Assembly (NCBI GenBank): GCA_964016885.1
Contig: OZ024742.1
Span: forward strand, 96,782,001-96,846,000
DNA length: 64,000 bases
Direction of reading: 5' to 3'
Source: Eledone cirrhosa
Lineage: Eukaryota
Within the stretch, counting starts at the first letter, position 1, and each line of letters opens with the position of its first letter. The notes beneath the pieces are model-generated. The model was not told the DNA's origin. It searched no databases and was given only the letters and a program-made list of their open reading frames with translations. The position numbers were made by a program, and so were the translations under genes. Of the stretch, positions 29,113 through 51,645 are shown one piece after another.

Positions 29113-29801
29113 AATGTTATCATTTAATTTTTATAATGAATAAATAACATTTTCAAAAAATACATAAGTGAAAACAAAACAGTCCAATCAAATTTTTGCG
29201 GAATAAAATGTGTATTTCTTTTACTACTTATAGAGTATATATACTGTACATATTACTGGTAGCATACAGTAATACTAAATATTAATACAGAATGTTATAA
29301 TTGAATTTTTAAATAATTGTGAATGTATAGTATACTGTTATTTAGAGTAGAGTATGCTAGTGACCATTGTTACATTCTCCAATAAAAAATATAAAGTACC
29401 TTGTGAAATATACACATCCAGAGACTTTCAATAATGACATTTGGTCTTTCACACTCTCTCAATATATATATGTGGGAGTGTGTGTATGTATACTTATATA
29501 TAGATTTATATATGATTATACATACAAGTTTTCAACTTGTGCAAACATTATTTGGCTACTCATTCTCCCTAGGGACTTTAGACTGAAGAATTGACCACAA
29601 ACTGATCGTGCATATGTCTTTAGCCCATTGATATCAACAAATATTTGGGCATGAGCTCATGTGTATGTGTAAGTGCATATATATATATATATATAAAAGT
29701 TAAACAAGGTTCAATGAATACATCAAAGAATGGGTTTTACAATAGATTGGAAGCACTCAACGGAAAGAGGGGTTCAGCGTTATTAATATTAATTCTAAAT
29801 A

Positions 29802-29998
29802 TTAACAAAATAGATATTCTTGTGATCAATTATATTTTATTATACATATTTCAGAGGTACTGAGTTAAGTTCAACAGTACGTCCTCATCAGATAATATAA
29901 TATTATATCTGATGAGGACGTACTGTTGAACTTAACTCAGTACCTCTGAAATATGTATAATAAAATATAATTGATCACAAGAATATCTATTTTGTTAA
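29802..29998. repeat. Palindrome (93-bp perfect arms, 11-nt spacer) carrying two divergent HHRs
   Basis: 29802-29894 is the reverse complement of 29906-29998. Confidence 0.95.
29901..29967 (+). ncRNA. Type I hammerhead ribozyme (mirror copy on - strand at 29833-29899)
   Basis: Stem I tattatat/ataaaata (1 mismatch), CTGATGA, stem II ggacgtactg/cagtacctct (1 mismatch), GAAA, self-complementary stem III atatgtat, cleavage triplet AUA. Confidence 0.75.
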
Positions 29999-30589
29999 CA
30001 TTTTGAATTAATATATATATATATATATGTGTGTGAATGAAGTAATTCCATCGGAAAAGTCCAGGAAAAAAGAGTGCTCTATGTATGCAACAGAGCTTAA
30101 TTATTATTATTATGTAATAAACAACATAAGGCAAACACTCAGATAAACGAACATCAACGGCCCTCGCAAGTAAGGTATGGGATCTCAAGGATAGTAATAT
30201 CCCGTAATCTATTGATTGGTCTATATTAGACCATTCGAGGGAGTAACAAAGGGGCACAAAGAATTGTTCTTTGTGTACCACAGAAAAGTATAGGATTTTG
30301 CTAAACTTGAGAGCCACTTCCGCTTGCCTTAACTCAAAGACTGAGATCTTCAGATGCTGTCCTCATCTGAAATCGCATCTGATCTGTAACTGGATTGACA
30401 CTCCTACGATAAATCAACCGCCTTGAACTCCTTCTCTGCTCTTTACTTTTGCTACGGTTTTTATTTTGCTGATTCTACCTTCTGTACTCTTGTATATTTA
30501 AACATTTTTTCTCCCTTACCTCCCCTTATATTTTTACCTCCTCTTAGCCCCCCCCCCCCCCATATATTCTTTTTGTTTTGCCCTTCACA

Positions 30590-32080
30590 TACCTATGTGT
30601 ATGTGTATGTATTTTTGTGTGTATATATATGTGAGTATATATGTATATATGTACGTATATGTTTGTGTGTATATATATATATATATATATATGTATATGT
30701 ATATATATATATGTATATATATATGTGTGTGTGCGTGTCTGTATGTGTGTATATAATTGTATATTTGTGTGTGTATATGTATGTATATGTGGATAAACCA
30801 GGTTTTTTTCATTCTGAAGATTGAAGGAAACTTTTTTTGCTTTTAAGAAACCTCTGGTGAATGGATTAATTGCCTTGTATGGCTTTATTACTTTACTACT
30901 ATATATACGTTTATGTAAGATTCATTTGTCTTATCTAATACTGAGCTTTACACATACACACATGTATATATGTGTGTGTGTATGTGTATGCATGTGTGTA
31001 TGTGTACGTGTATGTGTGTATATATATGTATATATATATATATGTATATATATATATATATATATATGTATATGTATATGTATATATGTGTATATGTATG
31101 TGTATGTATGTATATGTGTGCGTGTGTATTTATTTATTTTTATGTGTGTGTGGGTGTGTGAGTGTGTGGGTGTGTGTGTGTATGTGTGTGTGTTTGTATT
31201 TGGTTGTGCGTTCTTTTGATATATACGTATTTGCATGTGTATAATTGTTTAGCTATGTATGTATATGTGTGTTTACGTATTTATATGTGTGTGTGCGTTT
31301 ATATTTTTATATTTTTGTATGTATATATATATATATATATATGTATATATATATATATATATATATATATATATATATATATATATATATATATATATAT
31401 ATATATATATATATATATATACATATATATATCTATGTGTGTGTGTGTGTATATAATTACATATACATGTGTGTGTTTATATTGTATACGTGTACGTGTT
31501 TGTGTATGTATGTGTATGTACGTGTTTATGTATTTGTATATGTATATTTATGTGTGAGAGTGTGTGTATGTGTTTACTATTTCGTACGTATGTATATGTG
31601 CTTTTGTGTGTATTACTTACCATGCGTGTCTGTCCTGTTAGCTGGGGCATGTATCGCTGTCAAAAATGTGTTAATATATATTTATATATTTTTTTCTTAT
31701 ATTTATTTGCGTGTGTGAATATGTAGTGGAGTGCATTCATGTATGTGTATGTATGTACGTTGTATGTTTGTGTGAATGTATGTATGGGTGTATATATATG
31801 TGTGTGTGTATGTGTGTGTGTGTGTGTATATGTGTGTGTGTATGTGTGTGTGTGTATGTATGAATGTATGTATGTGTATATGTGTGTATATATGTGTATG
31901 TGTGTGTAGGTGTACGCTCTTTATATATATATATATATATATATATATATATATATATATATATATATATATATATATATATGTGTATATGTATATGTGT
32001 ATGTGTACATTTATATGTATGTATATATGTATGTGTGTGTAAGTATGCTTTTGGGTTTTTTCATGTGTGTTTGCATGTGT
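30590..32080. repeat. (TA)n/(TG)n compound microsatellite field
   Basis: Directly visible; source of the YI/CV spurious ORFs. Confidence 0.95.
30807..30865 (+). ncRNA. Degenerate hammerhead ribozyme
   Basis: ttcatt-CTGAAGA-stem II-GAAA-cctctgg-TG-aatgga; H17 is G and stem II is decayed, so probably inactive. Confidence 0.5.
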
Positions 32081-32183
32081 AGTTTTATTTTATTTTTCCT
32101 TTCCTTTTCCCTTTTCCAGCCTCACTTTCATATATATTGCATTTTTGTTTTTAGAATCCATATTCAATAAACAAACCAGGATT

Positions 32184-32243
32184 TTTCATTCTGAGGATTG
32201 AAAGCAAAACGTTTTGCTTTTAAGAAACCACTGGTAAATGGAA
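32184..32243 (+). ncRNA. Type I hammerhead ribozyme
   Basis: Stem I tttcatt/aatggaa, CTGAGGA, self-complementary stem II ttgaaagcaaaacgttttgcttttaa, GAAA, stem III acc-act-ggt, GUA cleavage after 32236. Confidence 0.75.
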
Positions 32244-32467
32244 TAATTGCCTTATGTTGTTTATTACATAATAATAATATATATATATATATATATATAT
32301 ATATATATATATATATATATATATATATATATATATATGCAAAAGTTCTATTTAAATTATTGGGATACAACAAGTAAATATTTAATAACTGAAATAAAGC
32401 ACTCGACAAGTATTTGGAGGAGATATACGATATTAACAAATGGAAACTATATTTATAAAACCATATT

Positions 32468-49667: not shown

Positions 49668-50292
49668 GGGCAATGGATTGGCGGTATCAGTAGAGTGCCA
49701 GACATGTTTTGTGACATTGAGTCATGGCTCTTTACGTTCTGAGTTCAAATCTCGCCAAAGTTAACTTTGCCTTTCATTCTTATGAGGTCGATAAAATAAA
49801 GTACCAGTAATGTACTGGGGTCGATTTAATCAACTTCCCCTTCCCCTTCAAATTGTTGGCCTTGTGCCTAAAGTAGAAATAATAATAATAATTATTATTA
49901 TTATTGTTATTATTATTATTATTATTATTTTTATTATTATTATTATTAGGCAAAATTAATCCCGCCAGATTAACTTTGCCTTTCATCCTTACGAGGTTGA
50001 TAAAATAAAGTACCAGTAATGCACTAAGTAAATTGCTGGCCTTGTGCTAAAAGTAGAAACATTATTATTATGAGGATGGTGCATTGGCAATATCTGTAGA
50101 GTTCCAGACACCTTGCTTTGCAGCATCAAGTCACAGCCCTTTGAGGACTGAATTCAAATCCCGCCGAGGTTAGCATTTTTCTTTCATTCTTACGGGGTCA
50201 ATGAAATAAAGTACCATCAAGTACTGGGGTCGATTTAATCAATTTACCCCTCTCCTTCAAGTTACTAGCCTTGTATCTAAAGTAGAAACAAT
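49668..50292 (+). mobile_element. Cluster of three SINE copies separated by (ATT)n
   Basis: Copies at ~49668-49880, ~49955-50060 (partial) and ~50072-50292. Confidence 0.85.
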
Positions 50293-50677
50293 TATTATCA
50301 ATTGGCAGTATTGGTAGAATGTAAGCCTAAATACTCTAGTGAATTTAATGATTTTTCCATGTTCTGAATTTGAATCTTGCAGAGGTCATCTCTGCCTTTC
50401 ATTCTTAACTACTAGACTCTATATAATCAACTTTATATTGCGCTGCCCCCAAATTGCAAGTTTTATGCGAATGTTGGAAATAATTATTTTTATAGTTGTT
50501 GAAGTTCTACAAGGTTTTATATATTATTTCACACAGCTGCATGCACTTAAGAAATAAATAAACAGACAAGGCATGAAGGGACAACATAAACATGTAAGGT
50601 GGGGCAAAAATTAGTTATTTCCCTTGGATTCCAGTCTTATTTGCAAGATCAATTGTGTGAAAAAGATAAAGAAAGTA

Positions 50678-50808
50678 TCTCTCTCTCTCTCTCTCTCTCT
50701 CTCTCTCTCTCTCTCTCTCTCTCTCTCTCTCTCTCTCTCTCTCTATCTCTCTCTCTCTCTATCTCTCTCTCTCTCTCTCTCTCTCTCTCTCTCTCTCTCT
50801 CTCTCTCT
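50678..50808. repeat. (CT)n microsatellite
   Basis: Directly visible. Confidence 0.97.
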
Positions 50809-50939
50809 CAATATGTATATATATGTATAAGCATGTATAGATATATAATATATGTAAGTATAAATATATGTATATTTATGTATAAATATATGTATATGTG
50901 TATTTGTATGTGTATATATATGTAAAAATATATATGTAT

Positions 50940-51435
50940 TTCTATGTTTAAGGTCTCGTTTAAGGTCTATCTTCCACGCTAGTAGGGGTTTGGAGGGGAA
51001 TTTTCCTACTTGAGGCAAGATTGGTCGGGTGACCATGTCTCGCTTGTATGACTGCCTGACCGGTTTTCTACAGCTGGATGCCCTTCCTAACACTAACCTC
51101 GTTTACAGTGTAGACTGGGAGGTTTTTACTGTGTTACCTACATGTGGGCTGTGTGTTTTTTTGTGGTGACACATATATATATACATATATATATATATAT
51201 ATATATATATATATATATATATATATATATATATATATATATATACGTGTAGGCGCCACGGATAAAAAGCACCCAGCACTCACTGTAAAATGAGGTTGGT
51301 GTTAGGAAGGGCATCCAGCTGTAGAAATCAAGTTCCCGTCCCACCCTTGCAAGCAAGGAAAAGCGGACGTAAAATGATGATGAGATGATGATGATGATGA
51401 TGATGATGATGATGATGATGATGATGATGATGATG
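50940..51435. mobile_element. Two short RTE-tail SINE-like elements (- strand ~50940-51130; + strand ~51246-51435)
   Basis: Both share ggtgttaggaagggcatccagctgtagaaa with the RTE 3' UTR at 45515-45670; the plus copy ends in (GAT)n. Confidence 0.75.
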
Positions 51436-51645
51436 CATATATGTATATGTGTATATATATATGCATATATATATATATATACATATATGTATATATATAT
51501 ATATATATATATATATATATATATATATATATGCATTTATATATATATATATATATATGTAAAGTTATATTTAAAATTGTTGGGTTACAACTAGTAAATA
51601 TTTATAACTGATATAAAAGCACTCGACAAATATTTGGAGTATATT

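Follow-up and report, generated by a model that had tools for sequence, protein, structure and literature searches.

The 64,000-nt stretch of the Eledone cirrhosa genome analyzed here (OZ024742.1 of assembly GCA_964016885.1, positions 96,782,001-96,846,000 of the forward strand; hereafter the window) has a GC content of 35%, is rich in microsatellites and harbors copies and fragments of Penelope-like elements (PLEs) of the Hydra clade, which we sorted into families A to G. Several of them share the motif GTYGAGTGCT, which a first-pass annotation had noticed downstream of hammerhead ribozymes and read as a possible cis-signal. We find that GTYGAGTGCT is the 3' arm of a conserved, predicted bulged hairpin in Hydra-clade PLEs, and that this duplicated bulged hairpin marks, clade-wide, both 3' end classes of Hydra-type PLE insertions. 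Statements on the three PLE studies cited below refer to the accessible parts of their text and supplements.

Exact GTYGAGTGCT is present at all six sites named before (29752-, 32398-, 35949-, 39561+, 41513- and 51618-, signs denoting the strand), compared with a mean of 0.06 and a maximum of one in shuffled sequences, and if one mismatch is allowed it also matches at 55599+, 39618+ and 11724- (nine in total versus 3.24 expected). As previously stated, five copies lie 68-95 nt 3' of a hammerhead cleavage site: the distance from cleavage to motif start is 79, 68, 95 and 70 nt for the copies at 29752-, 32398-, 35949- and 51618- and, by reading, about 92 nt for 39561+, where the script missed the hammerhead's long stem II. 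Likewise, (TA)n follows four of the copies, starting 50-59 nt past the motif end (60-69 nt past its start), and the loci at 32.4 and 51.6 kb were correctly grouped as one family (B). The 10-mer was selected post hoc from the window; the independent loci described below are the real test.

Hammerheads were called by our own descriptor of a minimal type I fold, and those of the window show the CUGANGA and GAAA cores, helices I and II and a short palindromic helix III; self-cleavage is predicted. The calls depend on this descriptor because Rfam does not make them: a scan of the window gave no match at the gathering score and no hammerhead among the 150 matches listed of 156 with E<=1, and one hammerhead from the independent loci matched RF00163 weakly (19 bits, below the gathering score of 34). 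The hammerhead copies come in two lengths, with a short end 38-63 nt after cleavage that lacks the motif or a long end at 137-155 nt that contains it, and the motif therefore sits in the optional PLE “tail”. The reverse transcriptase (RT) thumb at 32874-33167 and the endonuclease C-termini at 30133-30408 and 52659-52906 align with complete proteins that carry Hydra-clade features. The RT fragment is also similar to the Hydra alignment published by Craig et al. (2021, PMC8557442, supplement), and a Pfam search with two PLE fragments was not informative. The endonuclease fragment at 52.66-52.9 kb carries CNLC..E..N..CLH, and the copy at 52.5-54.0 kb reads on a single strand from endonuclease through 3' untranslated region (UTR) and hammerhead to (TA)n. 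A hammerhead in the pseudo-long terminal repeat (pLTR) and insertion into (TA)n, both Hydra-clade traits, were likewise found.

In place of a genome-wide enrichment test we used a cross-species set of loci, fetched by protein homology alone with a protein alignment built from 12 relatives. The 90 loci comprise 79 from metagenomes (from the best 80 of 284 confirmed, with about half of the collection scanned) and 11 genome contigs. A hammerhead lies next to the open reading frame (ORF) in 53 of the 90, giving 59 hammerheads in 39 families at a 72% UTR cut-off; 12 families whose sequence stopped or became (TA)n within 95 nt were left out, which leaves 27 informative ones. GAGYRCT occurs in the first 120 nt after the hammerhead in 23/27 families, compared with 1/27 for the 120 nt upstream and 0.38 in shuffles, and the positional enrichment behind hammerheads that the first-pass annotation implied thus holds in independent, protein-selected loci. 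Among the four families without the box, one has a GAGCTCT variant without the upstream RCTC arm described below, one has the box in its other copy, and two appear to end earlier. The 42 boxes from metagenomes and genomes read GAGCACT (38) or GAGCGCT (4), never GAGTGCT. Antisense matches to GAGYRCT (10/27) are the same sites read in reverse, GAGYRCTC being quasi-palindromic. The ORFs share only 40-64% identity with the query; among the 22 ORFs longer than 600 aa in box-bearing loci, a Hydra-type C-terminal GIY-YIG domain (CxxC and CxH around conserved E and N) was found in 19, and loose patterns applied to these loci only recovered the N-terminal motifs RWK/RWR in 19, [DE]K[TS] in 22 and CxCx5-9C in 21; the window contains no corresponding stretch.

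Hydra PLEs were also present in contigs filed as bacterial genomes (L082-L092), where animal host DNA was most likely binned in, and in one of them (L088) at least four families are stacked in shared (TA)n sites. Hammerheads of another style near Hydra loci (L039:319, L092:3454 and L019:136) have no box in the following sequence; as they are short-ended, they are a weak control. No Hydra relatives were found in viral contigs, and two matches there to the pattern of hammerhead plus motif lack the CTGANGA core and were taken as chance.

The element behind the motif has the form 5'-RCTC-[stem-loop]-TH-GAGYRCT-3'. An RCTC arm lies upstream of 42/42 boxes compared with 9.6 expected; more than one candidate arm was present for 7/42, and the nearest was used for the pair counts. 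With a 2-nt bulge, the three inner pairs are Watson-Crick in 39/42, 28/41 and 21/37 cases versus 23.4, 11.2 and 9.2 after permutation, and this excess is found only with a bulge of two nucleotides (TT 30, TA 7, TC 5) and not with bulges of 0, 1, 3 or 4 nt. Three or four pair types occur at inner pairs 2 and 3, and the first inner pair (C-G or T-A) switches at least four times on well-supported branches and seven times by parsimony (25 ORFs, tree without outgroup). As pairs 2 and 3 vary in type and pair 1 switches repeatedly, relatedness alone is insufficient to account for the pairing. The mean CTC/GAG pair probability is 0.87, the loop measures 4-17 nt in the metagenome boxes and up to 30 nt in the window, and at the sequence level conservation covers the 3' arm and the unpaired RCT. 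At the outer pair, an A-C mismatch is present in two metagenome boxes. In the window, the outer pair is ACTC/GAGT in C, D1, G and the 51.6-kb copy of family B (B51) and GCTC/GAGC in D2 and F, so that both forms occur within family D.

A window descriptor made of the arm and the first inner pair gave 10 matches, one of them D2 reversed, compared with 0.36 in shuffles; the box of family A and that at 55599 fail it. The sequences around the motif had been called otherwise unalignable, which does not hold, as the families share the 5' CTC arm and the hairpin. Furthermore, the list of boxes has to be extended by D2 (GAGCGCT), F (GAGCACT) and the two family G copies (both GAGTACT) given in Table 1. 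The variant at 55599 is a real one-mismatch match but not a separate case, being the tail of the family at 29.75 kb (A), and the copy at 41513, described as an orphan, indeed has no hammerhead upstream but possesses a CCTC arm and a C-G first inner pair; it is likely a decayed tail.

Local minimum free energy folding recovered the complete bulged hairpin in B51 and G1 and a variant form in D2 and F, with alternative structures in D1, C, A and the orphan; folds of whole tails were unremarkable (z -1.9 to +0.3). In an Rfam search of one 5' UTR with two hairpins (L013) only the hammerhead and two chance-level matches on the opposite strand appeared. No base pairing between motif and hammerhead loops was seen by eye. 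Pairing of the palindrome between two RNAs was discarded, as the common form would need C-A mismatches. A coding role (V-E-C) was also rejected, since no reading frame stays open downstream of the cleavage site and GAGCACT precedes the ATG in other families. The two occurrences of TAGAGTGCT (9306 and 9356) lack the arm and belong to a 50-nt tandem duplication in Gypsy-like sequence.

Two hairpins are present in 15/16 families with a whole 5' UTR, 12 of them exact and three more with one mismatch or N. The arm-to-arm spacing is 56-83 nt, and in all 13 families measured the ATG follows the end of the second hairpin by 12-39 nt (median 21). In six published Hydra consensus sequences compared by eye, one coral element and both sea cucumber elements carry the hairpin (Hydra-1_Ajap twice), the copepod element has variants of it, and Hydra-1_Amil is uninformative (PMC8557442). 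Five 9-mer forms, counted on the sense strand, where line breaks may hide matches, gave four occurrences in the small Hydra consensus file compared with three in the far larger Naiad and Chlamys files.

The position of the hairpins follows that of the insertion ends. When ended copies were compared with longer relatives, 12/16 of the 3' ends mapped -1 to 7 nt ahead of the next arm, and families F and G2 contribute one further case of 5 nt each; TA microhomology blurs these positions by a few bases. The distance from cleavage to arm varies from 34 to 73 nt, and the motif tracks the insertion ends rather than the cleavage site. Reads and contigs on family D amounted to 1374, 1444 and 1406 records from three runs and one from a fourth, two of the runs representing one sample. 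Loose (TA)n ends, among those listed, occur behind 39529 in all three runs and behind 39601 in one, and these break points precede the arms (39532 and 39608) by 2 and 6 nt, so that the ends are 72 nt and the arms 76 nt apart. Across the second site the summed contig depth, which does not measure copy number, drops about 19-fold, from 141-152 thousand to 7.3-7.8 thousand. A TAT or ATA is found no more than 10 nt from the arm in 32/42 boxes versus a background fraction of 0.32. Since copies end just before either hairpin, the PLE “tail” corresponds to the interval from hairpin to hairpin. The long-plus-short asymmetry of inverted pLTR ends has already been described (Arkhipova et al., 2013, PMC3846280), and here head-to-head pairs consist of one long and one short end in 10/11 informative cases, seven in the window (one by eye, one with an uncertain partner) and 3/4 in the loci; one further pair has no box on either side.

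As insertions stop a few bases short of one hairpin or the other, the hairpins likely mark the start of reverse transcription, and on the strength of these sequence patterns we assume that each hairpin is probably an RNA handle that positions the element's RT for an internal start of copying. Transcription of a tandem copy would continue beyond the second hammerhead and include the 5' UTR that follows. The RT-endonuclease protein, bound to a hairpin, would nick (TA)n DNA, and the 3' end released in this way would serve as primer on the TA-like patch immediately 5' of that hairpin. A start at hairpin 1 would leave a short end without box, and a start at hairpin 2 a long end in which hairpin 1 is copied and the “tail” is made. 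A protein dimer on both sites, one per cut strand, could then give rise to head-to-head insertions that combine a long end and a short one. More tentatively, the two hairpins might constitute a clade-wide RNA “start-site ruler”, each docking one RT of the dimer just behind a TA-like priming patch, with different hairpins priming the two strands of a cut (TA)n site. The first-pass suggestion of a cis-signal for RT recognition or priming in the pLTR tail is therefore favored, with a duplicated, covarying bulged hairpin rather than a linear 10-mer as its unit.

Several observations weigh against RT positioning by the hairpins or against their generality. G-U pairs (5) are about as frequent as A-C pairs (4; two inner, two outer), and a fold of the sense RNA is not told apart from one of antisense RNA or DNA. 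Four of the 16 end comparisons do not fit or gave no clear position. Two of them have offsets of 14 and 16 nt, the alignments between diverged subfamilies having broken off early; in another the end lies within the box; the last is L016, which has one clean box and a 3' copy that diverges right after it. The arm of family A is degenerate, and with a CCTC arm its end would be about 15 nt off. One inverted pair (L088) is short plus short, and the Hydra-1_Obim consensus has, by eye, two GCTC and no GAGYRCT arm before the ORF (PMC8557442). In the window, ORF remains adjoin three families only, with an RT fragment head-to-head with B and endonuclease fragments beside E and F; no recognizable ORF is physically linked there to A, C, D or G, which were assigned by the shared box, the (TA)n ends and, except for G, the hammerhead. 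The AT-rich patch alone could set the ends through microhomology. In Poseidon, the site of initiation had no homology with the DNA that was cut (Frangieh et al., 2024, PMC11167929).

It is also conceivable, though we regard it as unlikely, that the hairpins work as DNA structures: recognizing them in single-stranded cDNA or extruded DNA, the GIY-YIG endonuclease would cut a few bases away, and both ends would arise from resolution of the transposition intermediate. The tail has indeed been attributed to endonuclease-mediated resolution (PMC8557442) and that of D. virilis is cited as needed for endonuclease recognition (PMC11167929); the lack of a G-U excess and the quasi-palindromic GAGYRCTC point the same way. 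However, the sole PLE system studied in vitro places the tail ends at RT start sites on RNA (PMC11167929), and loops of such variable length speak against plain double-stranded recognition. Rather improbable is a function in translation, with the hairpins as initiation elements for the uncapped, hammerhead-cleaved mRNA and the ends located there since structure or AT-rich patches favor priming. The placement of hairpin 2 shortly before the ATG in all families measured is in line with it, and a study on ribozyme-linked translation initiation in RNA viruses exists, judging by its title (PMC13725137); but the same small end offset at both hairpins is left unexplained, and family D retains both hairpins though this copy has no intact ORF after them. 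Roles in translation and in RT positioning are compatible and not exclusive.

We consider it very unlikely that the box is a double-stranded DNA promoter element of the pLTR. TTGAGTG resembles NK-2-type homeodomain sites, and the sequence conservation of the 3' arm and the unpaired RCT would suit such an element, as would the internal promoters of PLE pLTRs (PMC8557442, PMC3846280). Covariation across a fixed 2-nt bulge, however, has no reason in duplex DNA, which disfavors the internal promoter considered in the first-pass annotation, and the usual form of the box is GAGCACT and not GAGTGCT. Neutral common descent or chance is hardly credible: all elements are related and the window 10-mer was picked afterwards, but arms and bulge persist with repeated compensatory changes although the UTRs split into 39 families and the ORF identities are as low as given above.

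Table 1. PLE-derived features of the window (positions in the 64,000-nt stretch; hammerheads and hairpins as predicted).
Feature	Position	Strand	Details
Family A long-end copy	29696..29900	-	hammerhead core 29891 to cleavage after 29841; (TA)n end ~29696
Family A box	29752-29761	-	5' arm degenerate, GCTG or CCTC
Family A inverted partner	29901..30014	+	short end 7 nt before GCTG arm of long copy; no box
Family F hairpin	30073..30096	-	GCTC-TG..CA-TA-GAGCACT, canonical; long end 44 nt on, ~30029
Hydra-type GIY-YIG endonuclease C-terminus, decayed, beside family F box	30133..30408	+	tblastn E 4e-10
Family F hammerhead and short end	32191..32280	+	ends 5 nt before arm present in inverted long piece
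Family B copy	32339..32524	-	cleavage after 32476; hairpin 32398-32420 (CCTC CAA..TTG TC GAGTGCT); long end 32339
Hydra-type RT thumb fragment, head-to-head with family B copy	32874..33167	+	tblastn E 7e-23
Family C long-end copy	35899..36098	-	cleavage after 36054; hairpin 35949-35991; end ~35899
Family C inverted partner	36370..36476	+	short end at arm base
Family D hammerhead, long stem II	39407..39473	+	cleavage after 39468
Family D hairpin 1 (D1)	39532..39570	+	ACTC CGT..ACG TT GAGTGCT; many other copies stop at 39529
Family D hairpin 2 (D2)	39608..39627	+	GCTC C..G TT GAGCGCT; many other copies stop at 39601
Family D downstream hammerhead and short end	40735..41051	+	split by ~196-nt repeat at ~40812-41007
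Family G hairpin (G1)	41129..41155	-	ACTC TAC..GTA TT GAGTACT; long end ~41085; small inverted short end ~41192; ends placed by eye (alignment locked onto TA repeats)
Family G second copy (G2) hairpin	41350..41376	+	long end ~41421; inverted short end ~41226; no complete hammerhead core found
“Orphan” box	41513..41536	-	arm and first inner pair as in text
Family B long-end copy (B51)	51559..51747	-	cleavage after 51698; hairpin 51618-51640; end 51559
Family B inverted partner	51918..52018	+	short end at arm base
Family E	52659..53982	+	Hydra-type endonuclease C-terminus (CxxC..E..N..CxH), 3' UTR, hammerhead 53890-53944; short end 38 nt past cleavage; no box
Family A copy	54880..54985	-	broken hammerhead core, short end
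Family A tail piece	55599..55668	+	begins at box (TA bulge form); long end

The window contains further element remains and repeats. A hammerhead-like short-end copy akin to family F (30814-30900, +) lies inside the 30.0-32.3 kb element, and a decayed Hydra-like endonuclease C-terminus (59740-60054, -) ends near (TA)n; the descriptor scan finds no hammerhead there, and a word-index search with this 59.7 kb fragment gave no match. A tandem direct repeat of about 300 nt at 55715-56610 (+) has, by eye, a hammerhead-like fold with a U3-A8 core (TTGATAA ... GAAACTACGTAGTC) and probably represents another PLE clade, as it has no RCTC/GAGYRCT box. At 51066-51326 two head-to-head copies of a short repeat surround (TA)n and form a long hairpin with a false score against miRNA models; the repeat, which contains GAGTGCT without an arm, recurs at 52220-52300 and 54160-54300. 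Long inverted repeats with 92-95% identity at 36847-37445 and 38281-38880 resemble a DNA transposon or foldback element. A 196-nt SINE-like repeat is present at 40812-41007, 18673-18868 and 59500-59695, the first copy splitting the family D hammerhead from its short end. We take 9348-12328 (-), 15944-17901 and 43980-45278, labeled from their translations, to be a decayed Gypsy-like long terminal repeat element and RTE-like fragments of long interspersed nuclear elements (LINEs). The region 61580-64000 is a long degenerate tandem array of 16/32-33 nt (ATCACCAAGCACC-type).

Recruitment or positioning of a retroelement-type RT by an RNA structure is familiar from stringent LINEs (UnaL2, ZfL2 and the R2 3' UTR) and from the template-recognition element of ciliate telomerase RNA. 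The LINE signals lie within the copied 3' end, whereas the Hydra hairpin is located immediately past the start point, is left out of copies that begin at its own site and is present twice. PLE RTs and the telomerase RT share a most recent ancestor (PMC8557442), and a template-positioning RNA handle would therefore bear on the origin of telomerase RNA; if the ruler existed, it would be a template-positioning RNA element in the closest relatives of the telomerase RT. Together with an RT dimer it would derive the tail, the long-plus-short inverted insertions and trans-mobilization from one mechanism. Furthermore, a covarying structure that matches both end classes makes start-site choice testable by point and compensatory mutations, and the box is useful for annotating element boundaries. 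If the hairpin were a portable loading signal, a compact RT-endonuclease could copy chosen RNAs into (TA)n sites.

The choice of start site, the optional tail and the inverted ends were named as an open question by Craig et al. (2021, PMC8557442), and the question of the start site has been partly answered in vitro for one element (PMC11167929). We found no description of the hairpin in the open literature or in Rfam, in agreement with the first-pass annotation, with Repbase, Dfam and subscription papers outside the search. The elements described here share with the Hydra-clade PLEs of PMC8557442 the C-terminal GIY-YIG signature CxxC..E..N..CxH, RWK and DKT as well as the pLTR hammerhead, the (TA)n targets and inverted partial copies. 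They differ in the tail, which measures about 56-93 nt here compared with 30-40 nt there, and hairpins are not mentioned in the accessible text of that study, although the consensus sequences it provides show them. A tail on one member of a pair of inverted pLTRs, as well as trans-mobilization by pLTR sequences, was already described by Arkhipova et al. (2013, PMC3846280), whose accessible text names no cis-signal, uses neither “hairpin” nor “stem-loop” and proposes an antisense self-priming model. A further parallel is Poseidon_Ac, in which reverse transcription begins at two internal sites, one at either border of the tail; this element cuts and extends both strands and is predicted to be a dimer (PMC11167929). 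Two ends downstream of the hammerhead with the tail between them, an AT-rich target and a stem-loop near initiation are, by description, common to both systems. In Poseidon_Ac, however, an AC-rich stem-loop lies inside the ORF of one element, whereas the Hydra hairpin is bulged, conserved across the clade and duplicated in the 5' UTR, with the insertion ends just 5' of it.

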